A stretch of 64,000 nucleotides of DNA, taken from NCBI GenBank assembly GCA_963768055.1, contig CAVYGN010000002.1, positions 1,024,001 to 1,088,000 on the forward strand, read 5' to 3'. This DNA is from an uncultured Spirochaetota bacterium. GTDB taxonomy: Bacteria > Spirochaetota > Brevinematia > Brevinematales > JAOACQ01. Shown piece after piece: positions 10,857 to 36,162 of the stretch. Both the position numbers and the translations under genes were made by a program. The stretch's first letter is position 1; the number at the start of each line of letters is the position of its first letter. The notes below the pieces were generated by a model, which was not told the origin of the DNA, made no database searches, and saw only the letters and a list, made by a program, of their open reading frames with translations.

Positions 10857-11486
10857 ATGGGAACAAAAGATAGAAAATTGAGAGAATTGGAAAAGAGGCG
10901 CAGATTGATCCTTGATAAAAGCAGGGATCTGTTCTTCCGGAAGGGGTTCGATAATGTTACCATAGATGAAATCTGCACTGCTATAGAATACGGAAGGAGC
11001 GCTTTGTACAAACTTTTTCAAAGTAAAGAAGAAATATATTTCAATATTTGTATTGAAGGGATAAACCTCCTTGGGGAGAGTTTGATGGATCTGAACATGA
11101 AAAGTTATTATTTTGAAGAGGAATTTTTAAGAATCCCTAAAATCTTTGTAAAATTTTTCTTCGAACAGAAAAACTATTACGAAGCAATGTTATTTTTCAC
11201 AAAAAACAAGCAGGCAGATCTCAGTATTTCAAACGAACTCTTTGACAGGATGCTGGATGTCAGCCGTATTGCAATGAACCCTATCGACCTCCTGGTAGCT
11301 CGGGGAATCGAACTGGGAATATTGAAAAAAGCCGATTACGGGCGGATCATTATTTTATTTAAAGTCTCACTTACCGGCCTGCTGGATAAGTTTTTCCTTG
11401 ATAGGGACAGTATTGAAATGAATATTATCGAAGAATTTTGCCTCGACCATGCAAGGATTTATTTGAACGGCTTAAAATCGATGTGA
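10857..11486 (+). CDS. TetR/AcrR-family transcriptional regulator
   Basis: LFFRKGFDNVTIDEI...ALYKLFQSKEEI helix-turn-helix. Confidence 0.9.
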   Translation: MGTKDRKLRELEKRRRLILDKSRDLFFRKGFDNVTIDEICTAIEYGRSALYKLFQSKEEIYFNICIEGINLLGESLMDLNMKSYYFEEEFLRIPKIFVKFFFEQKNYYEAMLFFTKNKQADLSISNELFDRMLDVSRIAMNPIDLLVARGIELGILKKADYGRIIILFKVSLTGLLDKFFLDRDSIEMNIIEEFCLDHARIYLNGLKSM

Positions 11487-11626
11487 TGATCGGATCCGGG
11501 GCCGATGTTAATATCTCTAATAAGGACGGTATGACTGCGCTCTCTATAGCCGTATTGAAAGGACAGGGCGATATTGCCGAAAAGCTTAAAAAAGCCGGGG
11601 CAAGATTAAAGAATTCATTTAATTGA
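11483..11626 (+). pseudogene. C-terminal remnant of an ankyrin-repeat gene
   Basis: GADVNISNKDGMTALSIAVLKGQGDIAEKLKKAGA is a single terminal ankyrin repeat with no 5' part. Confidence 0.6.
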
Positions 11627-11644
11627 AAAAAAGATCATAAAATT

Positions 11645-11673
11645 TTGCAAAAAAGGCAAAGGAGTGATATACT
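11645..11673 (+). promoter_or_regulatory. rrn operon sigma-70 promoter
   Basis: TTGCAA-N17-TATACT about 190 bp upstream of 16S. Confidence 0.7.
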
Positions 11674-11858
11674 ACTGACCGCCTCCGAGAAGGAAGCGAA
11701 AGGTAATAGAACTATGGTGAGAGTCCAGTGCGAGTCCTACTCGGTCACCGAGGGTTAAAGCTCGGTGATGGAGGAAGACAAACAATTTCTTAAGAACCCC
11801 GCGCCGGCTTGCCGGAGCGGGGAGATGAAACAGATCAAACAAGAAATGATAATAAAAT

Positions 11859-13390
<1,532 letters not shown>

Positions 13391-13640
13391 TTTAGGGAGA
13401 AAAAAAGTCACTGGACTCTCATCATTTATATAAAAATAAAGGATGAATATAAAAAAGGTATCTTGATTTGTTTAACGCAGATCGAGAACAATTCGCCTGT
13501 CAACGTATATAAATCGTTGAGGTTCATCTGAGCTCATTGGGGTAATGAGCTCACGCCGAACTTTTGCGAGGCGTAGAGCGAATTACACCGAAGTTAATGA
13601 GCCAAGCCGAGCAAAGTGAGGCATAAGGCGAATTAACCGA

Positions 13641-13714
13641 GGGTGTATAGCTCAGTTGGTTAGAGCGCAGCCCTGATAAGGCTGAGGTCGGTGGTTCGAA
13701 ACCACCTACACCCA
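13641..13714 (+). tRNA. tRNA-Ile(GAT)
   Basis: Cloverleaf with anticodon loop CTGATAA and T loop GTTCGAAAC; CCA not encoded. Confidence 0.95.
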
Positions 13715-13765
13715 ACCCCTCACAAGGTGAGGAGCGTACTTGATCGCATATGCGCTCAAGCACGG

Positions 13766-13838
13766 GGGGGTGTAGCTCAGCTGGGAGAGCGCCTGCCTTG
13801 CAAGCAGGATGTCAGGGGTTCGATTCCCCTCATCTCCA
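13766..13838 (+). tRNA. tRNA-Ala(TGC)
   Basis: Cloverleaf with anticodon loop CTTGCAA and G3:U70 pair; CCA not encoded. Confidence 0.95.
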
Positions 13839-13910
13839 GGCAAGAAACAAAGAAAAGAAAAGAATAGGAAAGAAAAAGAAAGAAAAGCGGTTATAGGAAT
13901 AAGGTAAGAA

Positions 13911-16803
<2,893 letters not shown>

Positions 16804-16834
16804 TTCTTTCCTTTATTCTTATATCGTTTTATTT

Positions 16835-16940
16835 GCTCTCGACCATAGCGCAGGTGTTACACCCGGTCCCATTCCGAACCCGGAAGTTAAGCCCTGCGTC
16901 GCCGATGATACTCGTTTCGGGGAAAGTAGGTGTCGAGAGC
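16835..16940 (+). rRNA. rrf: 5S rRNA (short, about 106 nt)
   Basis: CCCATTCCGAACCCGGAAGTTAAG core; helix I GCTCTCGAC/GTCGAGAGC. Confidence 0.92.
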
Positions 16941-16976
16941 TTTTTTTATTTATTTTAAGACAAAAAGAGGAAAAAT

Positions 16977-18179
16977 ATGGTTAACGCGCTGAATACCATA
17001 GAGGAAGCGTTAATAGAAATTAAAAAGGGGAATATGGTTATCGTCGTAGATGACGAAACAAGGGAAAATGAAGGGGATCTTGTGATGGCTGCGGAAATGG
17101 CCACCCCTGAAAAAATAAATTTCATCATCAGGGAAGCAAGAGGCCTTCTGTGTTCGCCCCTTACTTCCGAAAAAGCCTTGAAATTAGACCTTCCAATCAT
17201 GACCGATGAAAAGAACGAAAAATGGGGAACGGCGTTTACGGTATCTGTCGATGCCAAAACAGTCAACACGGGGATATCTGCATTCGAAAGAGCCGAGACT
17301 TTGAAGAAACTGGCCTATCCCGGCGCTGCCAAGGAAGATTTTGTAAGGCCGGGACATATTTTCCCTGTTCAGGCCAGGCCCGGCGGAGTATTAAAAAGGG
17401 CCGGGCATACAGAGGCGACTGTTGACCTGATGTCCCTTGCAGGACTTCAAGAAGTCGGCGTTATATGTGAAATATTAAACGAAGACGGTACGATGGCAAG
17501 GATGCCCCAGCTTAAACAATTCGCGAAAAAACATGAACTCAAAATAATCAGTGTTGCGCAGCTTATCGAATACAGGACAATGAAGGAAAAGCATGTATTC
17601 AAGGAAACAGAAGCGCGTCTTCCTACTAAATACGGTGATTTCAAAATTATAATTTATAAAAATAATATAGACGATAAGGAACATGTAGTTCTTTTAAAAG
17701 GGAAGATTAAAAAAGAACCGCCTGTCCTCGTACGTGTCCACTCGGAATGCTTTACCGGAGATATATTCGGGTCCCTTCGCTGCGATTGCGGAGAGCAACT
17801 GCACAAGGCAATGGAATTGATTGAAAAAGAGAATTGCGGGGTCATTCTTTATATGCGGCAGGAGGGCAGGGGTATCGGACTCCTTAATAAGATTAAAGCT
17901 TACTCCTTACAGGACCGCAAGGGTCTTGACACAGTCGAGGCTAATATTGAACTTGGCTTCGGAGAGGACCTTAGAGATTACGGGATCGGGGCACAAATTT
18001 TGAAAGACCTTGGACTTTCAAAAATACGGCTCCTTACCAACAATCCGAAAAAAATAATAGGCCTTGAGGGTTTCGGTATAGAAATAGTGGAAAGGATTCC
18101 CTTAATAATAAAATCCAATGAAGAAAATGAAAAATACCTTATGACTAAAAAAAACAAAATGGGACATATCCTGGACTGA
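16977..18179 (+). CDS. ribBA: Bifunctional DHBP synthase / GTP cyclohydrolase II
   Basis: [30 protein letters not shown]...RCDCG. Confidence 0.97.
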
Positions 18180-22992: not shown

Positions 22993-23637
22993 ATGTTCTT
23001 AGATGTTTTACCGGCAGGTATTTATGGCATTACAGCCGAAGAGTATTCAAATGGACGCAAAAATATTGAAGTGGTCAGGGAAATGGTTAAAGGGGGGGTT
23101 AAAGTCGTCCAGTACAGGGAAAAGGGTGATAAGCCGTTACGCCTGAAATTTGACGAATGCATGGAAATCCGTAAAATAACAAAGGGTGAAGGCGTTATTT
23201 TTATAGTTAATGATTTTATCGACATTGCCCTTGCTGTTGATGCGGATGGAGTCCATATCGGCCAGGACGATATGCCCTTCGGCGCAGTCAGGAAACTTTT
23301 GGGGAAAAAGATCATCGGGATTTCAACCCACAGCAGGAACGATGCGATTGCAGCTGTGCAGGCCGGTGCAGATTATATAGGTGCCGGGCCGGTCTACAAG
23401 ACTTTTACGAAAAAACACGAGGGAGGGCCTGTTGGCCTTGGATATCTGGATTTTGTTATAAAAAATATCCCGATACCTTGTGTCGCGATCGGCGGTATAA
23501 AAGAAGATAATCTTGAAGAAGTTTTAAAAACCGGTGTTAAGACTGTTGCGCTTGTCACGGAGATTGTAGGCGCTCCGGATATTTGTAATAAAGTGATTAG
23601 TTTGAACAGACTTCTGACCAGATTTCAAATTTCCTAG
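22993..23637 (+). CDS. thiE: Thiamine-phosphate synthase
   Basis: VQYREK, IVND, DGVHIGQDD, GISTH, VAIGGI. Confidence 0.95.
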   Translation: MFLDVLPAGIYGITAEEYSNGRKNIEVVREMVKGGVKVVQYREKGDKPLRLKFDECMEIRKITKGEGVIFIVNDFIDIALAVDADGVHIGQDDMPFGAVRKLLGKKIIGISTHSRNDAIAAVQAGADYIGAGPVYKTFTKKHEGGPVGLGYLDFVIKNIPIPCVAIGGIKEDNLEEVLKTGVKTVALVTEIVGAPDICNKVISLNRLLTRFQIS

Positions 23638-23651
23638 TGATGAGGTGTTTT

Positions 23652-25469
23652 ATGGATACTATTAATAATGAAGAAAAGATGACTCCGGCAGTCTGGCTTA
23701 TGGTTATATTGATCATCATCCTGTCTGTTATCCCGTTTATTTCCAATTATAAATACTGCGATAATCATAATAACTGGCTGAACCATGATTATTGTAAATA
23801 TCTCATGTCTTCAACGGAAGAAGGGTCTATTTATATGACCGAAGGCGGGGATAACCAGGTTTTTGGCAGCCTTTACTTTACCTATGCGGAAAAACTCAGG
23901 CCGGACATTACCCCATACGACCAGAAAGGAAATATTTTCAAAAAGATATACGGGGACATGAGATATATTAGCGACCCTGAGACACTGCCAAGAAGGATGA
24001 ATTTAGTCGATTCTCATCTTTTTGAAAGCGAACAGCCTTTTTACGAAGATTTGAGAAATTCCGCGGATCCTTATTTTATACCTTACTGGCAGGGAAAAAG
24101 ACCGGTATATTTATTATGGCAGAGGCCTGACCCCTGGCAGCTCGGGGATTATTATTATAAACGTTTCGGTACTTATATGTATAAGGTGCAGGATATTGCG
24201 TTTTCTCTGGTCGATTATCTTGAGCTGAAAGGATCGGTTTCTATCAAAGAAGCGCAGGACCAATTCTCGGGATGGCTCCACCGGACGGTAGATATTAATT
24301 ACACCATCGATAAAATACATCCCATGGAAAAAGCGGGATATTTGAAGATGGAAGGCAACAGGGTTTATTTTGTGAAAATGTATCCGGCTCCTCATCAAGG
24401 AGATTACTTCAACGATTATCTTTTGCGCTGGCATCAGACCCCTAACGCGAAATACTGGGATTATCTTTCCAGGGAGATAATTGTTACCTATGATTACACG
24501 ATGGGTGAGATATACAGGGATAAGATCAATGAACTCCAGGCTGTTAAATCCAATGAGACTCGCAAGGGAATCCTTACCGAAATAGATAAGGAGATAAATG
24601 AAAACTGGCAGAAAGCCAAAGAATACTTCAATGACGCCCTCACATACGGAGGCGATTTTAATTCAACCCTTCATAATATAGCTGTTGTTTTTATGAGAAA
24701 CGGGATTGAAGATATGAATGGCAGGGCGAGGGAACTGCTTACCAGGGCCCTTACACTTTATCAAAATCAATGGAGCACATATTATATTACATTGACATTC
24801 CTGGTTCTTGATTCTTTTAAAACCCCCGGTCATGAGGAAGAGAATATCAGGGAAGCGGATAAATGGATTGCCCAGCTCAAGGGTGAAGCGCAGCATTACT
24901 CCTCGGATAAGACAAGAGATTCCATCCTTAAAAATTTTGAAGGCCTTGAAAGGTTTTATGACTCCCTGAAAATGACCTCCACAGCACGGCTTGATGCGGC
25001 GGCTTTATCGTTTTCAAACGAGATTAAGAACAATCCTGCACAGGTAGATGCCAACCAGGCTGAAAATGTCATCGACCTTCTGTATTCACGCGGCCTGCCG
25101 TTTCAGTATCAGCCGTATATAATAATGGCTGATGAGCTCTTTAACGAGATGATAACGCTGAAGAGAGGAGATTACCCTTATCTTTACAGGGCGTTTATGG
25201 TGGCTTTCCAGACCCAGAGGCTGGAAAAGGCTTATAGCCTGGGCAGGGATATTGAGGCCCACACTTCATACAGCGGCGACTTTTCATTCAATTATTACAT
25301 GGGTGTGATCAGTTATTATCTGCATAGATACGATGATTCCGTGCGTTACCTGAACAGGTTTAACGACCTAGTAGGCTTGAGCAGGGAAAATATGATGAAG
25401 GCTGGCGAAATGGTTAAAAACGCTACAGAAATATTGAACCAGATCAAAACGGAAGAGAAGATCAGGTAG
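23652..25469 (+). CDS. C-terminal half of a DUF2723/TMEM260-like GT-C protein (one TM helix plus periplasmic and TPR-like domains)
   Basis: Single TM then NY...HDY...SIYMTEGGDNQVFGSLYF...RPDI, resembling the post-membrane motif of DUF2723 proteins. Confidence 0.65.
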   Translation: MDTINNEEKMTPAVWLMVILIIILSVIPFISNYKYCDNHNNWLNHDYCKYLMSSTEEGSIYMTEGGDNQVFGSLYFTYAEKLRPDITPYDQKGNIFKKIYGDMRYISDPETLPRRMNLVDSHLFESEQPFYEDLRNSADPYFIPYWQGKRPVYLLWQRPDPWQLGDYYYKRFGTYMYKVQDIAFSLVDYLELKGSVSIKEAQDQFSGWLHRTVDINYTIDKIHPMEKAGYLKMEGNRVYFVKMYPAPHQGDYFNDYLLRWHQTPNAKYWDYLSREIIVTYDYTMGEIYRDKINELQAVKSNETRKGILTEIDKEINENWQKAKEYFNDALTYGGDFNSTLHNIAVVFMRNGIEDMNGRARELLTRALTLYQNQWSTYYITLTFLVLDSFKTPGHEEENIREADKWIAQLKGEAQHYSSDKTRDSILKNFEGLERFYDSLKMTSTARLDAAALSFSNEIKNNPAQVDANQAENVIDLLYSRGLPFQYQPYIIMADELFNEMITLKRGDYPYLYRAFMVAFQTQRLEKAYSLGRDIEAHTSYSGDFSFNYYMGVISYYLHRYDDSVRYLNRFNDLVGLSRENMMKAGEMVKNATEILNQIKTEEKIR

Positions 25470-25857
25470 ATGCCGGCCATGAGGACTCGACATGGACTTC
25501 GATGCCCCCGCGATTGTTCCATTCAGCGCTAATGCTGATCCGGCGCGGTTTAACAGCCGCGACGAAATCATCGAGTATCTTATTTGTAGCGTTCTCCTGG
25601 AAAATCCCTATATTCCTGTAACCGGTAAGGTATAGTTTAAGCGACTTTTCCTCAACCAGAAGCTTATCCGGCACATAAATAATTGTCAGTTTAGCGTAAT
25701 CCGGGAGCCCGGTTTTGGGGCAGATGGTTGTAAATTCGTCTGTCTTCAATTCTACAGTGTAATCCCTGTCCGAATATATATTTTCAATTACTTCAAGCCC
25801 TGGAGTTATTGCAAGGTCTCTTATACGGCCCTGGCGGTTTCGATAAGAGGAATTCAT
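25462..25857 (-). CDS. queF: preQ0 reductase, short type I
   Basis: EFTTICPKTGLPD, EEKSLKLYL, RGGI. Confidence 0.88.
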   Translation of the reverse strand: MNSSYRNRQGRIRDLAITPGLEVIENIYSDRDYTVELKTDEFTTICPKTGLPDYAKLTIIYVPDKLLVEEKSLKLYLTGYRNIGIFQENATNKILDDFVAAVKPRRISISAEWNNRGGIEVHVESSWPAST

Positions 25858-27251
25858 TATTTCTGTTCTCCTTGTTTATTTATTAATACACTTCTTAAGT
25901 AAACTTTCAATTCATCGACAATATTTTTAGGTTTGTATCTGCTATTTTCTAAACTATAATCCACATTAATTGATTTATCCAGGAAAATACTATCAGGATT
26001 ATCGGAAGTAAAAGTTATATGGCTTTCCCTGATTTCAATTGGCGGGACTATTATTTTTTTAAGCCCTTTTTCTTTCGCCTCCATAATTATTTTTTGTCTG
26101 TCAGACATCTGTTTTGCTAAAAAATAATTACTGAATAATCCCAGAGTGCAATCCACCGCCAGGATGCTCATAAGGGAGACGGTAATGATTTCATTTATTT
26201 TTTCTTTATTAAAGGCTTTGAGATTCTTAACATTTATATTCAATAAACTCATAAAGGAGAGTGTGATGAAAATTATAAAAAAATACATAGGTCTCTGGCC
26301 GCCGAAAGGGAAAAGAATTACTAGAAGGATACTGACAAATGCTGTTATCAGCCAGAGTATAGAATCATTCATCCTGTCTCTGGTAATTTTGCCGTTTAAT
26401 ATGAACGAAGTCAATACAATAACTACAAGCCATATCCAAAATGACTCCGCACCATATCCTATTACGTAAATAATAAAATCTCCGATTTGTTTGGCAAGCT
26501 TTCCGAATAAATTTTCATTAATCGAGAAAGCGCCCATTCTTTTATAATTTCCAGGAGCTAAGAACGATATTAATCCCCCGATAATAAAGGAAGCAAACCC
26601 GAAATATAAATAATACGGCACCTTTTTCTCAATATTTTTAAACCATAAAATATAAGCAACCCAGACTCCCATTAAGAAGCCGATACTGATGACTACCTGT
26701 TCGTGCGACAGCCCGGCTATTATTCCCGCAAATATTATGAGAATACTGTATAATATTTTATCGGGAAAAACCGATTTTCCGGATTTATACCACAAAACAA
26801 AAGGGGTTATAAATATCAAACCGAAAAGCATAGGCCAGAGATAGGAACCCGAGCCGGATCTCCAAAAAACACATTCTCCTAAAGCAGGCATTCCGAACCA
26901 GACTGCTGAAAAAGCCATTAAAAAAATCATTCTGTCGTAAGAAAATATATCGGGAAATCTTCCAAGCGCACAGATTATAATTATAAAAATTGAGGCTAAA
27001 AAAGCGGCTCCGTTTAAAGCGCCTGATAGATAATGGAAAAAATCATTATATGTGCTGAATTTCATTATAAATAAATTTAAAACCCTTCCGCTCCAGTTCA
27101 TATATGTATTGGATAATATCTGAAAAAAATGCTGCTCGTGAAACTGATCATAATAGCCGTAATCATCCGCCATCCTCGGCTGTAATGCTCCGATTGAAAG
27201 AACAATAATAAAAATGATTATCAGAAAAATATTATTAAAACTATTTTTCAT
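25857..27251 (-). CDS. DUF6056-like multi-TM putative GT-C glycosyltransferase
   Basis: ADDY, WSGR, FWRSGSGSYLW, SHEQ and APGNYKR motifs. Confidence 0.7.
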   Translation of the reverse strand: MKNSFNNIFLIIIFIIVLSIGALQPRMADDYGYYDQFHEQHFFQILSNTYMNWSGRVLNLFIMKFSTYNDFFHYLSGALNGAAFLASIFIIIICALGRFPDIFSYDRMIFLMAFSAVWFGMPALGECVFWRSGSGSYLWPMLFGLIFITPFVLWYKSGKSVFPDKILYSILIIFAGIIAGLSHEQVVISIGFLMGVWVAYILWFKNIEKKVPYYLYFGFASFIIGGLISFLAPGNYKRMGAFSINENLFGKLAKQIGDFIIYVIGYGAESFWIWLVVIVLTSFILNGKITRDRMNDSILWLITAFVSILLVILFPFGGQRPMYFFIIFITLSFMSLLNINVKNLKAFNKEKINEIITVSLMSILAVDCTLGLFSNYFLAKQMSDRQKIIMEAKEKGLKKIIVPPIEIRESHITFTSDNPDSIFLDKSINVDYSLENSRYKPKNIVDELKVYLRSVLINKQGEQK

Positions 27252-28512
27252 TAATAATAGTCCCTTTAATTTCAAGGGTATTATCATAATCCGACTGCAA
27301 CTCCTGATTTTGAGAAAGACCGGCGATAATCCAGAAAAATACCCCTATTGGAACGGCATAGAAAACAGCATCGTATAATGAACTTATAAAAAAGGCGGTT
27401 AAAAAAGTGAAAGCGTTTAGATTGATCGGATTCCAGCCCCTGCTCCTTTTTTTAATAATTGAAATATACAGCAATATTAGAAATCCGAAAAAGCCGATGA
27501 AGCCTAATATCCCCGTTTCGATTAGAATGGCAAGATACGTATTATGGATAAAAGAATTTGCGGTATAAATAAACAGACCGGGGTATTTTTTGTTAAATTC
27601 CACCTGAAAATTCAAAAGCCCGATCCCCAGCAGAATATTGTTTTTTGAATATATTTTCAGGCCCTCTTTATACTGAAATAAACGGGAAGGCACATTGGGC
27701 GAATTCAGAGGATCCTCAAAGGTTGAAATAATTTTATCACCCTTAAAAATCAGAAAAAATACGGCAATGGCGACAAGGAAATATAAAATAATATATTTTC
27801 TTGTCAGGATAAAACTGAGAATTGATACGACAATTACTGACACAACTGCTGCGCGTGTAAAGGTGAGATAAAGGGTGAGAAGCGATATAAGAATAGCCGC
27901 AACAAGGACTGTATTTTCAAACATGTTTAATTTATTGTATTTAATGATAAAAAAAGTTAGTATGAAAGTCAAAACGATAAAAATAAGGTTCCCTCCGCGC
28001 CATGGATGCTGGAAAACCGAGTTGAGGGGATGATTTGTAAAGTCTGTCTGGGGCTCTAGGGTATAATAATGCTGGCCGAAGAGATTTATTTCGATATTTT
28101 GCCTGATTATGAAGTAATGTATAAGGGCAAAACCGCAAGCGACAATCAGGGAAACCGATATGGCGTAAATTATTTTTTTATACTTCTTTTTATCGAGCGG
28201 CATCAGCTTAAAAAATAAATAAACCAGTATATAAAAGCAAAAAACCCCGAAGCCCTGCCAGGCATAGTATGGATTTATAGAAAATATTGTGCTTAAAAGG
28301 AGCGAAAAGATGAAGAAGGCGATAAAATAATCATGAAGTTTAAATGAAATGGATAAATATCCTTTTGTTTTTATATAATATATTATGAAAACGATGAGGG
28401 AACAGGCGAGAAAGAAGAAAAACGGCGCTGCGAATATGCAGAAGAAAAAAGAAATCAGCAGCAGTATATAGTAGATCTTTTCAGACGATAATGGCTTATT
28501 TATCTTTTCCAA
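27241..28512 (-). CDS. O-antigen ligase (Wzy_C) family protein
   Basis: TFTRAA, LLGIGLLNF, HNTYLAILIETGILG. Confidence 0.85.
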   Translation of the reverse strand: MEKINKPLSSEKIYYILLLISFFFCIFAAPFFFFLACSLIVFIIYYIKTKGYLSISFKLHDYFIAFFIFSLLLSTIFSINPYYAWQGFGVFCFYILVYLFFKLMPLDKKKYKKIIYAISVSLIVACGFALIHYFIIRQNIEINLFGQHYYTLEPQTDFTNHPLNSVFQHPWRGGNLIFIVLTFILTFFIIKYNKLNMFENTVLVAAILISLLTLYLTFTRAAVVSVIVVSILSFILTRKYIILYFLVAIAVFFLIFKGDKIISTFEDPLNSPNVPSRLFQYKEGLKIYSKNNILLGIGLLNFQVEFNKKYPGLFIYTANSFIHNTYLAILIETGILGFIGFFGFLILLYISIIKKRSRGWNPINLNAFTFLTAFFISSLYDAVFYAVPIGVFFWIIAGLSQNQELQSDYDNTLEIKGTIINEK

Positions 28513-28609
28513 TTTGCTTTCCTTAATATGTAATTAAGAAGATATTTTAATGATAATATGTAAAAAAGTGAACTATTCAGGGGGTATAAATAATGTTTTT
28601 GAACGGCCC

Positions 28610-29335
28610 CTAATGTAACTGCAGCTTTATCTTCATCGGCGCCTGGGGCAGATCGAAAGGATCCCCCGGGGCATTTCCTTCTTCGACAACAGTTCCCTGG
28701 TTTTTTTTAAGTTCAACTTTCTTTCCACCGGACATCACTTCGGCGCTGCCGCTTACGACCGATATGCGGGTTACACTCCCTTTATTTTCAACACTGAACC
28801 GGTCCCCGCCCCGGATAGTTACTCCGCTTGCCGTATTAACTTCCAGGGGAGTATTTGCGAAAATCCTTCCGGATTTTATAATGACTGACGGCAGGGGGTC
28901 TATACTTCTGCTACCTTCAGAATTCCCCAAAGAAATTTCCGAATTTTCATAAATCCTGATTTTTTTTGATGAAGATAATTGTATATCGACCTGCGACGAT
29001 GAAGATGTCTTTAATTGATCATGCTCATAAACGGTTTGCCCGGGTTCCATACCGATCCAATTTGAATCGGATAAGATAAAAGTTTTAAGTGTATTCGGAA
29101 GAAAAGCTATTGTTCCGAAGATTATTTTACCCTCTGTCTTCAAATTCGTTTTGATTGACGGAATTCCGGCATTTGTCAGCAAATTTGTCTGGACCTGTTT
29201 TAATATATTTTGAGGAACCTCCTGAACATTCACCTGGTGTGAATAATAGATCAGGAAAATATTCAATGAAATCCAGATAAGCGATGCCAGTGATAGTAAA
29301 ACAATCAAAGTGTAGCGGTTAAGGTTTTTTTTCAT
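28610..29335 (-). CDS. FecR-domain protein
   Basis: N-terminal TM; DQLKT, IRIYENSEI, VNTASG, VVSGSAEV. Confidence 0.7.
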   Translation of the reverse strand: MKKNLNRYTLIVLLSLASLIWISLNIFLIYYSHQVNVQEVPQNILKQVQTNLLTNAGIPSIKTNLKTEGKIIFGTIAFLPNTLKTFILSDSNWIGMEPGQTVYEHDQLKTSSSSQVDIQLSSSKKIRIYENSEISLGNSEGSRSIDPLPSVIIKSGRIFANTPLEVNTASGVTIRGGDRFSVENKGSVTRISVVSGSAEVMSGGKKVELKKNQGTVVEEGNAPGDPFDLPQAPMKIKLQLH

Positions 29336-29338
29336 AAT

Positions 29339-30484
29339 TTATTCCCCTAAAGGATAAACCATCCACATTATGACGGACCTGTCTTCAGAAACCTCAATTT
29401 TCCAGGTTTTTTCGGAACTGTTTTCAAATATATCATCGGCTATGACTTTCAGGGTATGAGATCCGTTTTTAATGTATCTTAAAGACATCGGCATATTTTT
29501 ATTCGTAATGCCGTCAATGACCGTGAAAAACTGGAATACTCTGGTATCGTCGGTAATTTTCAAATTTATTATGCTGTCTCCATATGACCTGGTAGCAAAT
29601 CGTATTTCTTTTTTATTAAGATAGAGTTTTATTTCAGGCGGCTCGGTATCGACATAAAAAGTTTTAACGAGCCTGTTTTCATAATTCATAACGTTCACTG
29701 AAAATGAAACGACTTTTAATATATTTGTATCTTTTGTTACGGTATAAAATGAGCTGTCGACCTTTCTTTGATTTACCCCGAAATAGCTGTCGCATGAAGA
29801 CCATCTGTCCCTGCAGATAAAATCGATCCGGCTTCCGGGGTAAAGATATGTTTTATCCCCGAAAATAATAAAACTTTCAGGGTTAATATCCAGGTCCGGT
29901 GGCGAATGTTCGACTAAAAATCTTACAGAGGAAATTTTACTCTCTTTTCCAAGCGGATTGATAAGTTTATAGAAAAGAGTATGATACCCTTCATCCAGAG
30001 GGGTTGTATCGATTCGGATTTGAAAGCCTTTAACCTCTTTGAAATCCAATGGAATATCAAGAGAATAAAATAATGTCGAGTTAAAATTGACCGGACTGTT
30101 GGAAGAAATATCGCAATTCCATTTCAATATATTTGTACCTTCAGGGAACTCATTTTCGGATGAAGCCGGCGGTTTGACTCCGGTAAGTTTTCCTCTTCCG
30201 TTGTTGCCTTCCTCTGCTACTGTGAATTCGACCGGGTCTGAAAAAAGGCCTTCAATGCCATTTAATACCGGAGCGATTTTTAAAAAATAATGGCCGGGCT
30301 GTAAATCTATTATATAATTTGTAGTATTTATCAGATCGTCAGTGACTGGAAAGTAAAATGAAGAATTTGTAGCAATTATTATGCGGTATTGAGGAGCGCT
30401 GTTAGGCCATTTGTATTCGACAATTACGGACTGAAGGAAAGAAGGAATAACCGGAATTAATAAAAGCAAAAAAAGTCTTTTCAT
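29339..30484 (-). CDS. Secreted protein with Ig-like/FN3-like domains
   Basis: Signal peptide; EGYHTLFY, DTEPP, GSHTLKVIADDIFEN. Confidence 0.6.
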   Translation of the reverse strand: MKRLFLLLLIPVIPSFLQSVIVEYKWPNSAPQYRIIIATNSSFYFPVTDDLINTTNYIIDLQPGHYFLKIAPVLNGIEGLFSDPVEFTVAEEGNNGRGKLTGVKPPASSENEFPEGTNILKWNCDISSNSPVNFNSTLFYSLDIPLDFKEVKGFQIRIDTTPLDEGYHTLFYKLINPLGKESKISSVRFLVEHSPPDLDINPESFIIFGDKTYLYPGSRIDFICRDRWSSCDSYFGVNQRKVDSSFYTVTKDTNILKVVSFSVNVMNYENRLVKTFYVDTEPPEIKLYLNKKEIRFATRSYGDSIINLKITDDTRVFQFFTVIDGITNKNMPMSLRYIKNGSHTLKVIADDIFENSSEKTWKIEVSEDRSVIMWMVYPLGE

Positions 30485-30692
30485 ATTGAGAAGGAAACCT
30501 CTCGATTGGTTATATTACTCTATTATAAAGAGATAAATTTGTCAATTTAATTTCTTACTATACATGTCCCCGTTTCACCGAAGGTTGTGAAGCGCCCAAA
30601 ACGAAAATACTAAAATTCAGCTTTAATTTTTGCATAATTTCATTCTTTTTTATACAATAATAGATTGTTTATTCCTTTAACCGGAGATTATA

Positions 30693-32456
30693 ATGGGTAA
30701 TGTTAAGCAGACTGCCGAAAGCAAGATTTTCCTGGATATTTATCCCAATGGTTTCTCGCCTTACAGGATAAAATGGTTCGATTTAGCCTTCGCTTCCATA
30801 ATAACCCTTATTGTACTTATTCTATATATCCTGACTCTCGCACCGAGCGTTATCGCCGGAGACAGCGGAGAGTTGACAACTGAAATTTACCAGATGGGGG
30901 CATGTCATCCGCCTGGATATCCTTTATATGGAATTCTCGGCAAGCTATTTACTTTCCTGCCCGTAGGAGATATCGCCTACAGGGTTAATCTGTACGTAGC
31001 TTTCAGCGGCGCATTCGCTATATTCATGTTCTATCTTGTAATGGTTAAGCTCCTCGGCTTTAACCGTGACATAGGCAAGCCGTCCCTCTCAATTCATCTT
31101 CCGGCGGTAGCAACCTCCCTTATTTTCGCATTTTCCTATGATTTCTGGCAGCAGACATCGGCAAGCGGTAAATTTTATTCGCTTAATGTTTTACTGGTTG
31201 CGGCAATGCTGTTTATAATGATCCTCTGGTATGAGGAAATAATGTATTTCAGGAATGAGAACAATAATCATTTCGCGGAGCGTATGACAATTTTTCTCGC
31301 TTTTATTATGGGATTATCATTAACAGACCACATGCTGCCTATGTGGTTTATAGCTGTTTATGTTGTCAGCCTGCTGCCATTCGTCATATACATTCTGATT
31401 AAGGACGGTTCGCTTAAATTTAAAAAAGAATTCATGGTAAGGATACCCAGCATTTTAATCCTCCTGCTGCTTGTATTAGTGAGTTTGACTCTCCTGATGA
31501 AATATATGGTAGCTATAAAGCCGATTATTTATCCTGCCCATACTCCTATGATACTGATAGGCTGGTTCCTAGTCCCGGCTTATCTTTCGATCTATACGAT
31601 ATTGATCAGGGTCAAAAAAAAATTCGGGTTTAAAGCTGCCGCAGTAATTTTCTTTTTACTGATCTTATCCGGGATCGGCGGCCTCATTTATTTCGGATCG
31701 TATGCCAATGAGGCCCATTTTATCCCGAATACTCAATACCCTTTAAATCTTTTCAGTATAGATTTAGTGAACGAGAACGGCGTTCCCACGCCTATTATAA
31801 TCGATCCGATATTTATTATTTTCCTCGCTTTAATTACTATGATCATTTTTTTCTATGGAATTTACGATGGAGCGTTAAAAAAATCCGATGTTGAATTCGG
31901 CCTTGCAGATAAGTTTATTGAGATCCTCACATACAGCGGCTGGATGTTTATATTTGCTATGACGTTATACCTCTACCTGATGGTCAGGAATATAGCGCTG
32001 GCGCCGCTGCAGGGGCAGGGACCGCAAAGTTGGGGCGATACCGTAACGCTGGACATCCTTTTTAATCATATGTTCAGAAAACAATACTATTCTCATCCGG
32101 ATTATGCAAATCTTGGCGGCCAGATCATGGCGGTTCTTAAAGTGACCCTGGCTCAGTTCAATTGGGCTGGCATAATATTCGCAATACTTGGATTTCTTTA
32201 TTTACTCCTTGTAAGGAACAGTGTATGGGCCCTTTATACTCTTATGGCTTATGTGATTTCATATGCGGGGTTGATCTTATATATTAATTTCCAGATCGAC
32301 CCGGCGACTATGTCGACCCAGAAACAGTATTTTTCGCAACTTCACTTGCTGATTGCTCTTTATATAAGTTTCGGGTTTCAGCTGATACTTGACCTGTCAC
32401 AAGGCAGAATCAAGTTGAAAAACCTTCTCTTTATTAAAAATAACCGCCGCGGCTGA
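30693..32456 (+). CDS. N-terminal (membrane) half of a DUF2723/TMEM260-like GT-C glycosyltransferase
   Basis: APSVIAGDSGEL, HPPGYPLY, YRVNL, GLSLTDH, SWGD; ends shortly after QYFSQLHLLIALYISFG. Confidence 0.85.
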   Translation: MGNVKQTAESKIFLDIYPNGFSPYRIKWFDLAFASIITLIVLILYILTLAPSVIAGDSGELTTEIYQMGACHPPGYPLYGILGKLFTFLPVGDIAYRVNLYVAFSGAFAIFMFYLVMVKLLGFNRDIGKPSLSIHLPAVATSLIFAFSYDFWQQTSASGKFYSLNVLLVAAMLFIMILWYEEIMYFRNENNNHFAERMTIFLAFIMGLSLTDHMLPMWFIAVYVVSLLPFVIYILIKDGSLKFKKEFMVRIPSILILLLLVLVSLTLLMKYMVAIKPIIYPAHTPMILIGWFLVPAYLSIYTILIRVKKKFGFKAAAVIFFLLILSGIGGLIYFGSYANEAHFIPNTQYPLNLFSIDLVNENGVPTPIIIDPIFIIFLALITMIIFFYGIYDGALKKSDVEFGLADKFIEILTYSGWMFIFAMTLYLYLMVRNIALAPLQGQGPQSWGDTVTLDILFNHMFRKQYYSHPDYANLGGQIMAVLKVTLAQFNWAGIIFAILGFLYLLLVRNSVWALYTLMAYVISYAGLILYINFQIDPATMSTQKQYFSQLHLLIALYISFGFQLILDLSQGRIKLKNLLFIKNNRRG

Positions 32457-32524
32457 TTATTTGATTTTTTTACTGCCCATAATTAAATTATATTGTAATC
32501 AGATCAAAATACGAGGTAATCAGA

Positions 32525-33064
32525 ATGCTTAAAAAGTTTTTTTCAGCAGCAGCTTCACTATTTAAGATAGATGGAAAAAAGTGGCAGACGATGAATATTG
32601 ACAAGCTTTTTTTCGAGGCCCAAACCGATAGATATTTTCTAATTCTAAAAGCAGCCGGGAAGAATAAAAGTGATGAGAGCGTGTTTCTGACAATCGGCAA
32701 TGTCTTTGATGAAAATGTATTCGCTAATCTTTTTATGAAGGCGGAGAATACAAAAAGGCTGTTCGATCAGCTGGGTATTCGAATAAAAAAGATAAGGATC
32801 TTGAAAAAAGTCAGTTCTTCGGATTCTGCTGAATGCATAGTAAGTATGGGAATATCGCAAAAGATTTTAAAAATGTCAACCGTTGATGCTATAAGGATGG
32901 CCCTTGAAAACAACAGGAGTGTTGAAGTTCTTCATGGAATGGTCAAAGCCGAAAAATTCGATCTTTCAAGTGCTGCAAATATGTCGTCAAAAATAATCAA
33001 TAATGTATTTTCCTCGAAGTTTATCGAAAGAGATGTTCATAACAATAACGAGGTGATTATGTGA
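32525..33064 (+). CDS. Hypothetical protein, weakly bifunctional-nuclease (DUF151)-like
   Basis: FLILK...FLTIG...STVDAIRMAL pattern. Confidence 0.5.
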   Translation: MLKKFFSAAASLFKIDGKKWQTMNIDKLFFEAQTDRYFLILKAAGKNKSDESVFLTIGNVFDENVFANLFMKAENTKRLFDQLGIRIKKIRILKKVSSSDSAECIVSMGISQKILKMSTVDAIRMALENNRSVEVLHGMVKAEKFDLSSAANMSSKIINNVFSSKFIERDVHNNNEVIM

Positions 33065-35166: not shown

Positions 35167-36162
35167 ATGAGTAAAACCAGATTACTGACAGTTGTTTTTT
35201 TGTGTGTTGGGATAGTCACGGCATATGCGCAGCAGACAACAGCCCCCGATCAGGGCACCAATACAGCCGTTACTGCTTCTACAAATGAAATGACGACCAA
35301 TCAGGTTACAAGCGAGAAAGAGGTTGTTGCCACACAGGGACTAGTTTATAATGATGGAACGATGGATTATGTTTCTCCGGATATCAAGTTCAAAATCGAC
35401 GCTAAAGACGACCAGGGATCGGGCGTTAAGTCAATATCGGTGATGATTGACGATTCTCAATTCGGTATCTACGAGGATCCGATCGCGTTTTTTACTGACG
35501 GCAAGCATATGATCGCTTATAAAGCCGAGAATAATGTAGGAAATATTTCTCCGATCAAGTATTATGAGTTTATCCTCGATAAGAACCCTCCGAAGGTGTC
35601 ATTAACGAGCGATAAGAAAGTTGTAAAGATCAAGGATATTTCTTATGTCAGTTCAAATGTCAATTACGGTATCTATGCCGAGGACGATTTTTCAGGCGTT
35701 AAATGGATAAATTATAAACTTGACGACGGGCAGGACACTGTTTATGACAAGCCTTTCGTTCCTATTGTTGCCGACGGCCTTCATAAGATCACTTATAAAG
35801 CCTCCGATAACGTAGGCAATATAAGTCAGGATCAGACATACATGTTTTACATGGTTTTGAATCCGCCTACAGTGGCTTTTTCCGTCGATCCCGTATTTGA
35901 AACGAATGGCAACAAATACATATCGCCTTCAACTGTGATCAAGATCGTCGCTACAGACCCTGAAATAGCAGTTGCTAACATCAGTTATATAGTTGACGAC
36001 GGGGCGGCTATGGACTACCAGAGCCCCTTGAAGCTCAAGGGAGGCACCCATACTATAAAAGCTACCGCTACCGATCTTGTGGGGAACGTAAGCCAGCAGA
36101 CAAATATTACAGTTATTGTCGACGCCACTATTCCTGAAGCTGAACTTACTCCTACTAAATAA
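35167..36162 (+). CDS. OmpL47-like secreted protein with three Ig-like repeats
   Basis: Three repeats of AxDxxSGV...G.H.I.YKA.DNVGN. Confidence 0.7.
   Translation: MSKTRLLTVVFLCVGIVTAYAQQTTAPDQGTNTAVTASTNEMTTNQVTSEKEVVATQGLVYNDGTMDYVSPDIKFKIDAKDDQGSGVKSISVMIDDSQFGIYEDPIAFFTDGKHMIAYKAENNVGNISPIKYYEFILDKNPPKVSLTSDKKVVKIKDISYVSSNVNYGIYAEDDFSGVKWINYKLDDGQDTVYDKPFVPIVADGLHKITYKASDNVGNISQDQTYMFYMVLNPPTVAFSVDPVFETNGNKYISPSTVIKIVATDPEIAVANISYIVDDGAAMDYQSPLKLKGGTHTIKATATDLVGNVSQQTNITVIVDATIPEAELTPTK

Follow-up and report, generated by a model that had tools for sequence, protein, structure and literature searches.

Two separately encoded halves of a putative TMEM260/GT117-type glycosyltransferase in Brevinematia

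Organization of the locus

The window is the whole stretch of 64,000 nucleotides that was analysed (G000:C2:1024001-1088000; source genome G000, 94.75% complete), and window coordinates are used throughout unless stated. It carries two intact open reading frames (ORFs) on the plus strand. From their sequences, these appear to encode the two conserved parts of a single TMEM260/GT117-type glycosyltransferase, divided in the loop that leads to the last membrane helix. The ORF for the C-terminal part (C-half, P0001) lies upstream of that for the N-terminal part (N-half, P0002), with 5,224 bases between them. G000 holds one intact copy of each. The features are collected in Table 1.

A preliminary description of this DNA had placed here a membrane half with GDSGEL and HPPGYPLY that stops after a late transmembrane (TM) helix and, 5.2 kb upstream on the same strand, a half with one TM helix, an NY..DY..T.GDN..F..Y..RPD pattern, and helices resembling tetratricopeptide repeats (TPR), each with its own ribosome-binding site and an intact frame. 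All of these elements were located. GDSGEL is at residues 56-61 of the N-half and HPPGYPLY at 72-79; the last hydrophobic helix spans residues 550-568, and the protein ends about 18 residues later. The TM helix of the C-half is followed by NY (32-33), DY (46-47), TEGGDNQVF (63-71), Tyr75, RPD (83-85), and then the TPR-like helices (271-604). Both frames are open, and a Shine-Dalgarno-like sequence precedes each. The stop codon of thiE (23635-23637) is just 5' of the C-half site, and most C-halves inspected in relatives have similar purine-rich upstream sites.

The C-half gene is close behind rtcB and thiE and is tail-to-tail with queF. The two halves are not on one transcript, because five minus-strand genes separate them. 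A promoter scan gave 55 sites, compared with 36 +/- 7 in shuffled sequences, and is not diagnostic.

Table 1. Features of the two genes and of the interval between them (TMH, transmembrane helix; aa, amino acids)
Feature	Position	Strand	Basis or remark
C-half Shine-Dalgarno-like GAGGTG	23642..23647	+	4 bases 5' of ATG
C-half gene, 605 aa: equivalents of TMEM260 TMH11, putative Rossmann-like "palm", and TPR "fingers"	23652..25469	+	sequence alignment, model
Single TM helix (aa 12-31), equivalent of TMEM260 TMH11	23685..23744	+	TM prediction, alignment, model; predicted docking on N-half helices 131-157 and 562-571
Rossmann-like domain region (aa 32-270), domain limits inferred	23745..24461	+	alignment, predicted secondary structure
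Asp67 in TEGGDNQVF, equivalent of human D441	23850..23852	+	alignment; role of D441 from 10.64898/2026.03.17.711096
TPR-like helical array (aa 271-605), putative acceptor-binding part	24462..25466	+	TPR matches, model
N-half Shine-Dalgarno-like GGAG	30683..30686	+	6 bases 5' of ATG
N-half gene, 587 aa: GT-C membrane domain (TMH1-10 equivalents and four inserted hydrophobic helices, aa 251-396)	30693..32456	+	domain search, alignment, model
Sugar-recognition motif residues Asp57 (human D52) and His72 (human H67)	30861..30908	+	alignment
Donor-loading-loop residues Arg462 (human R264) and Tyr465 (human Y267)	32076..32087	+	alignment
Five opposite-strand genes between the halves (context only)	25462..30484	-	ORF list, domain searches, congener comparison
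queF	25462-25857	-
DUF6056 membrane protein	25857-27287	-
Wzy_C/O-antigen-ligase-like	27241-28512	-
FecR-domain	28610-29335	-
Ig-like hypothetical	29339-30484	-

Family assignment

The N-half matches PF11028 over residues 57-225 (E = 1.5e-33; 116.6 bits against a curated cut-off of 24.2). The C-half gave only a sub-threshold TPR match in the domain library search, and the NCBIfam search placed neither half in a family. The sole PDB sequence match of each half is human TMEM260 (9RQL). Residues 40-242 of the N-half align to residues 35-215 of TMEM260 (E = 3.6e-20), with a weak extra stretch of 442-481 to 244-284, and residues 13-93 of the C-half align to 391-467 (E = 4.9e-4). This likeness is not due to chance, since the only PDB match of each half is the same protein, at non-overlapping places.

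The fused Brachyspira protein P0367 (1245 residues) is covered by the N-half at 88-606 (E = 7e-45) and by the C-half at 626-897 (E = 6e-39). On the fused proteins P0166 (405/406) and P0168 (389/400), a profile of 21 N-halves and one of 22 C-halves meet end to end. The non-overlapping TMEM260, P0367, and profile alignments rule out that the halves overlap or come from different families.

A C part was present in none of the 66 closest N-half matches (P0100-P0165). A profile search of 1.84 billion proteins gave 924 matches; the best 150 of these included 141 new proteins, comprising 78 fused forms, 38 starting at the C-half start (some of them fragments), 17 partial ones, and 8 with a different N-terminus. 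The named C-half homologues are from Brevinematales, Brevinema, and Thermospira, which assigns the host to the Brevinematia spirochaetes. The pair is classed as GT117-like; functional orthology to TMEM260 is not claimed.

Division of the active site

According to the TMEM260 structure preprint (10.64898/2026.03.17.711096), the human enzyme has 11 TM helices and four essential donor-binding residues, D52, H67, R264, and Y267. The catalytic base is described there as D441, which belongs to the Rossmann-like domain following TMH11, and the D441A variant is inactive. The TPR part binds the acceptor, and the TPR region alone is enough for peptide binding. The wording of the same preprint for this arrangement between membrane and luminal parts is "split active site"; further background on TMEM260 is given in PMC10214176.

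Alignment to TMEM260 places the equivalents of the four donor-binding residues in the N-half and that of D441 in the C-half (Table 1). Among the split N-halves, Asp57 and Arg462 are kept in 72/72, His72 in 71/72, and Tyr465 in 68/72 (Phe in 4/72). Asp67 is invariant in all 102 stand-alone C-halves, in none of which a lipoprotein signal was found. The most conserved parts of the C-half are TEGGDNQVF and the segment contacting the N-half. The preliminary description had taken the C-half for an acceptor-recognition module. The TPR array is present as described; however, the C-half also bears the equivalent of the catalytic base, and it therefore seems to be a catalytic subunit, not an acceptor adaptor alone. 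The domain after TMH11 is luminal in TMEM260, so the cut, which falls in the loop leading into TMH11, would be on the cytoplasmic side.

Conservation and selection in Brevinematia

Of 41 Brevinematia genomes, one of them G000, 38 gave a C-half and 40 an N-half, and the frames are separate throughout. The best C-half matches are 603-769 residues long and the N-half frames at most 663; none is fused. Both halves are missing from G009 (57% complete), and the C-half of G024 (83% complete) is a piece at a contig end. The distance between the halves is about 813 kb in G014 and 373 kb in G018, both of which are single-contig genomes. In a wider survey of 401 spirochaete genomes with the C-half profile and PF11028, a split-type N-half was found in 43 genomes, 42 of which carry a stand-alone C-half as well; conversely, each of the 42 genomes with a stand-alone C-half has an N-half.

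The ratio of non-synonymous to synonymous substitution rates (dN/dS) is 0.099 and 0.075 for the C-half and 0.066 and under 0.06 for the N-half, against G001 and G002, respectively; dS is near saturation and the values are rough. They are in the range of those of the neighbouring rtcB, thiE, and murF. Both halves are under purifying selection (dN/dS 0.1 or less).

The order of the locus is not an assembly artefact, because all four congeneric genomes share it. In addition, contigs from three public DNA runs (two studies, one of which may be the source) show no joint or indel; none covers the whole stretch, and one bridges the N-half stop (32046-32834).

Predicted structures and complex

The AlphaFold models are confident, with mean predicted local distance difference test (pLDDT) values of 93.8 for the C-half and 90.2 for the N-half. 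The N-half model has the fold of the GT-C class of glycosyltransferases: it superposes on Pmt1-Pmt2 with Z of 21.1 and a root-mean-square deviation of 4.0 over 352 residues. Foldseek alone returned only weak GT-C rows for this half (E above 0.03). The C-half model contains TPR helical repeats at 271-604, and its fold searches were filled by TPR matches. The palm region (residues 32-270) is assigned from the alpha/beta pattern in the model and the sequence match to TMEM260, the fold-search lists being occupied by the TPR part. TMEM260 structures were absent from the fold-search lists of either half. It should be mentioned that residues 182-240 of the C-half (24195-24371), inside the Rossmann-like region and thus in the putative periplasmic part, form an inserted alpha/beta segment with a winged-helix look in the model. 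This segment is also present in the fused Brachyspira protein, and one homologue is automatically named "DNA-binding Lrp family regulator".

The complex modelled from residues 12-580 of the N-half and 5-400 of the C-half received a score of 0.78, whereas the best of three controls had 0.00. Among solved complexes, 116 of 157 come up to the mark for this score; among mismatched pairs, 2 of 215 do. The runs share at least 93% of the contacts, and the partner pLDDT is at least 82. In the model, the helix of the C-half packs on residues 131-157 and 562-571 of the N-half, and the interface also takes in residues 47-60, 72, and 463-464 of the N-half and residues 67-68 of the C-half. The interface positions are more conserved than the remainder (0.64 vs 0.46; 0.63 vs 0.50). 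The prediction is thus of a single enzyme, put together from the two proteins in the membrane. Pairs derived from a split gene often pass this kind of test because they resemble solved structures, and therefore the complex model supports, but does not show, binding of this copy.

The preliminary description had also proposed a functional two-subunit GT-C enzyme cut in a cytoplasmic loop. None of the outcomes that it had named as refuting this was seen, and its proposal gains support from the complementary coverage of TMEM260, P0367, P0166, and P0168, from the class-wide split with purifying selection on both halves, from the shared gene order with joint-free public contigs, and from the complex score.

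States of the gene pair in spirochaetes

The C-half profile matches 87 of the 401 spirochaete genomes, and PF11028 matches 111, including all 87. These 87 are made up of 34 Brevinematia (split), 44 genomes with a frame of 1000-1342 residues (fused), 8 other split ones, and 1 fragmented one. The fused state was confirmed on 12 fetched sequences of the 44, which include 35 of the 36 matches in the Brachyspira family. The halves are adjacent and in N-then-C order in 7 of the 8 splits outside Brevinematia; those of G091 are on different contigs. Five of the seven adjacent pairs look translationally coupled, with an overlapping stop and start (TAATG, ATGA, or an 8-base overlap) after a purine-rich Shine-Dalgarno-like sequence; in the remaining two, 9 and 19 bases separate the genes. 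Every cut falls between TM10 and TM11; the C-halves of families f10, f24, and f37 have a longer segment after the helix.

The N-half and C-half trees are broadly alike and need two and three changes of state. The split families f10, f24, and f37 cluster with fused Brachyspira and f52 (98/95), away from Brevinematia with f19 and f35 (91/90), and a quick tree gave the same grouping. A single clade of all split rows, as expected from one fission without later change, was rejected on the N-half tree (approximately unbiased test, p = 0.022; 29 of 63 rows, LG+G4). This points to two fissions at the same loop, or to one fission and a re-fusion, between which the trees do not separate. A short-word search for fused forms above 1060 residues had no matches; since it failed to pick up even the fused proteins of Brachyspira, it is uninformative. 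With fused, coupled, unlinked, and re-linked pairs all represented, the stages of gene fission in a membrane enzyme can be followed as a complete series, which is rare.

Fusions with other domains seem to have followed the split: an RDD domain precedes the N-half in family f5 (P0120 and P0125, 647 residues), and a DUF2569 domain stands in front of the C-half in P0039 (785 residues).

Reversed order of the halves

The reversed order, to which the preliminary description had drawn attention, is real, but it appears to be a genus-level re-linkage and does not define the system, since the two genes are unlinked in most relatives. It was found in all five genomes of genus g1 and in no other relative whose flanks were read. 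The N-half is behind greA and before metG in G012, G014, G016, G020, G023, G026, and, as a second copy, in G004. The corresponding greA-CBS-metG slot of G000 has a 447-base gap with no N-half remnant. In G006, the C-half, queF, the Wzy_C-like gene, and a homologue of hyp32525 are in the same order as in the window, but no N-half is there. The DUF6056 and Wzy_C-like genes between the halves differ in order, strand, and presence among the congeners. The simplest reading is a genus-specific secondary re-linkage, in which a duplicated N-half would have moved near the C-half in the g1 ancestor. Permutation at the moment of fission is unsupported, given the restriction of the reversed order to g1, the G006 block without an N-half, and the empty slot in G000.

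Extra copies of the N-half occur in G004 (L045, L046, L047, L048) and G008 (L076, L077). Besides the copy at the greA locus, G004 has further pieces at contig ends, and the duplicate of G008 is in an inverted duplicate block. Apart from these genes, the GC content of 11001-17000 in the window is 0.50-0.55, compared with about 0.40 in the surroundings.

Proposed mechanism and alternative explanations

We consider it probable, at roughly three chances in four, that the two proteins form one reassembled enzyme, which would take a sugar carried by a lipid phosphate and attach it to Ser/Thr residues of exported proteins. Each half would enter the inner membrane on its own. In the model, the C-half helix slots against helices 3 and 10 of the N-half to complete the bundle, and this docking would bring Asp67, on the periplasmic side, close to Asp57, His72, and the donor loop. 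By analogy with human TMEM260, the N-half would hold a polyprenyl-phosphate-monosaccharide and the periplasmic TPR array would grip an extended exported polypeptide. Asp67 might then activate the Ser/Thr hydroxyl, and the transfer would invert the anomeric centre. As for the history, a fused ancestor may have acquired a stop and a coupled restart in the TM10-TM11 loop, after which the genes separated; in genus g1, an N-half copy would later have been relocated near the C-half, giving the reversed order.

Several observations speak against this reassembled protein glycosyltransferase. G012 (95% complete, 120 contigs) has an intact N-half (L060, G012:C8, at the greA-metG locus), and a C-half was not detected in it. 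Human R355 is not conserved: it is Gln in this N-half and Val in 61/72 split N-halves; the human R355A variant retains about 20% activity. The near-saturated dS also counts here, and so does the likeness to solved GT-C/TMEM260 structures, from which the pass of the complex model may stem. A search of G000 (94.75% complete) for the IPT/TIG domain (PF01833), to which the human acceptors belong, gave no match, and the acceptor must therefore differ from the human one. The literature found gives no bacterial GT117 with a tested function.

Sequon-like patterns were seen in none of 3,209 ORFs, and the literature found gave no usable lead on a spirochaete acceptor. Some proteins of G000 are candidate acceptors. 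OmpL47-type beta-barrel/Ig-like surface proteins are encoded near the N-half at 35167-36162 (plus strand) and 29339-30484 (minus strand), and the product of the former, with a Thr/Gln-rich stretch behind its signal peptide, is one such candidate. Seven ORFs encode predicted lipoproteins with long poly-Ser tracts after the signal peptide, which are candidates as well.

A reassembled enzyme with a non-protein acceptor, such as a glycolipid, an O-antigen-like polymer, or a different envelope polymer, seems unlikely. Envelope-glycan genes do lie between the halves in genus g1 (Wzy_C-like in 5/5, DUF6056 in 3/5), GT2 genes are nearby in G004 and G006, and many GT-C enzymes, including ArnT, Aft, and PimE among the fold matches of the N-half, use lipids or polysaccharides; the missing IPT domain would also fit. 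However, the linkage to envelope genes is secondary, the N-half being between greA and metG in most relatives, and all full-length C-halves have a long TPR array, the human counterpart of which suffices for peptide binding. It is quite improbable that the halves act independently, with an N-half working alone through Asp57 as base, as proposed for other GT-C enzymes, and a C-half repurposed as a membrane-anchored TPR scaffold. The distances in G014 and G018, the apparent lack of a C-half in G012, and the existence of secreted EGGDNQ-domain proteins without a TM helix would fit such independence. Against it stand the near-perfect co-occurrence and the broadly matching trees, the strongest conservation of the C-half falling on TEGGDNQVF and the N-half-contacting segment, the inactivity of human D441A, and the complex model. 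The chance that the locus is a decaying pseudogene or a misassembly is negligible. The odd reversed order, a decayed C-half fragment elsewhere in G000, and the lack of a single public contig over the whole stretch might suggest it; it is ruled out by the order in the four congeners, the split in each Brevinematia genome that yielded the two halves, the low dN/dS, and the clean contigs. The fragment (G000:C2:924794-925041, contig coordinates outside the window, minus strand) joins residues 71-110 (75% identical) directly to 562-605 (50%); it is what is left of an old duplicate that lost a large internal part.

The preliminary description also suggested that the C-half may be exchangeable. A modular system, in which one donor-binding subunit pairs with alternative C subunits and expression chooses the glycosylated proteins, with the same seam as the natural split point of all GT117 enzymes including human TMEM260, is doubtful. 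Tandem C-halves are present in 2/40 relatives, G003 and G006, each with one N-half. The second copies (L043:4302-6125 in G003 and L078:7086-8915 in G006, both plus strand) belong to pairs with dN/dS of about 0.1, that is, under purifying selection, and that of G006 has EGDDNQ in place of EGGDNQ. Faster TPR divergence in the paralogues was not found: the TPR/Rossmann dN ratio is 2.7 for the G003 pair, compared with 2.7 and 1.6 for orthologue pairs. G004 and G008, moreover, duplicate the N-half instead. P0322 of G013 (L055:5396-7711, minus strand) and five similar proteins (P0260, P0262, P0264, P0271, P0286) have a signal-peptide-like start, extra N-terminal domains, and the Rossmann-like/TPR module, with no TMH11 or GT-C part; the EGGDN motif is kept in 5/6. 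These helix-less proteins are possibly soluble alternative catalytic subunits.

Significance and comparison with known systems

If the reassembled enzyme is real, it would be a naturally two-gene GT-C glycosyltransferase, fixed class-wide, whose active site is shared by proteins encoded up to 800 kb apart. A function would be given to the "hypothetical" C-half family, which has no Pfam family beyond the weak TPR match, and stand-alone DUF2723 genes of about 500-600 residues would be half-enzymes. With halves that can be mutated, mixed, and swapped in trans, the donor-half/acceptor-half mechanism put forward for the disease gene TMEM260 could also be tested directly. The GT117 family and split glycosyltransferases are already known; no report of a split GT117 was found in the literature covered, most subscription journals being outside it, and the passages of PMC11237513 do not name the family.

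Human TMEM260 (CAZy GT117; PF11028, formerly DUF2723; PDB 9RQL/9RQM/9RQN) shares the GT-C wrist, the TPR fingers, and, by sequence match and the alpha/beta pattern of the model, a putative Rossmann-like palm, and the equivalents of its D52, H67, R264, Y267, and D441 are all kept in the split pair. It is one 707-aa-class polypeptide, whereas two genes are present here; the N-half has four extra helices, the C-half is longer, and R355 is not kept. The human enzyme O-mannosylates IPT domains, which were not found in G000, with polyprenyl-phosphate-mannose as donor. A fused spirochaete counterpart, Brachyspira P0367 ("glycosyltransferase family 117 protein"), has the same motifs and domain order, and its length corresponds to the sum of the halves (587 + 605). 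The identity over the matched parts is 28% and 33%. P0367 is encoded by one ORF, in which 19 residues connect the two matched parts. Pmt1/2/4, PglB, AglB, and STT3 share the GT-C fold with the N-half (Z of 19.6-21.1; 8-15% identity) and probably a lipid-linked donor; they are unsplit in the matched structures and have other soluble domains.

The MurG-like Alg13/Alg14 and EpsE/EpsF are cytoplasm-facing nucleotide-sugar enzymes of the GT-B fold. As described in PMC4973528, they are either fused or split into a two-protein heterodimer. In the present pair, in contrast, the cut would lie inside a multi-pass GT-C membrane bundle, with the active site on the outer face.

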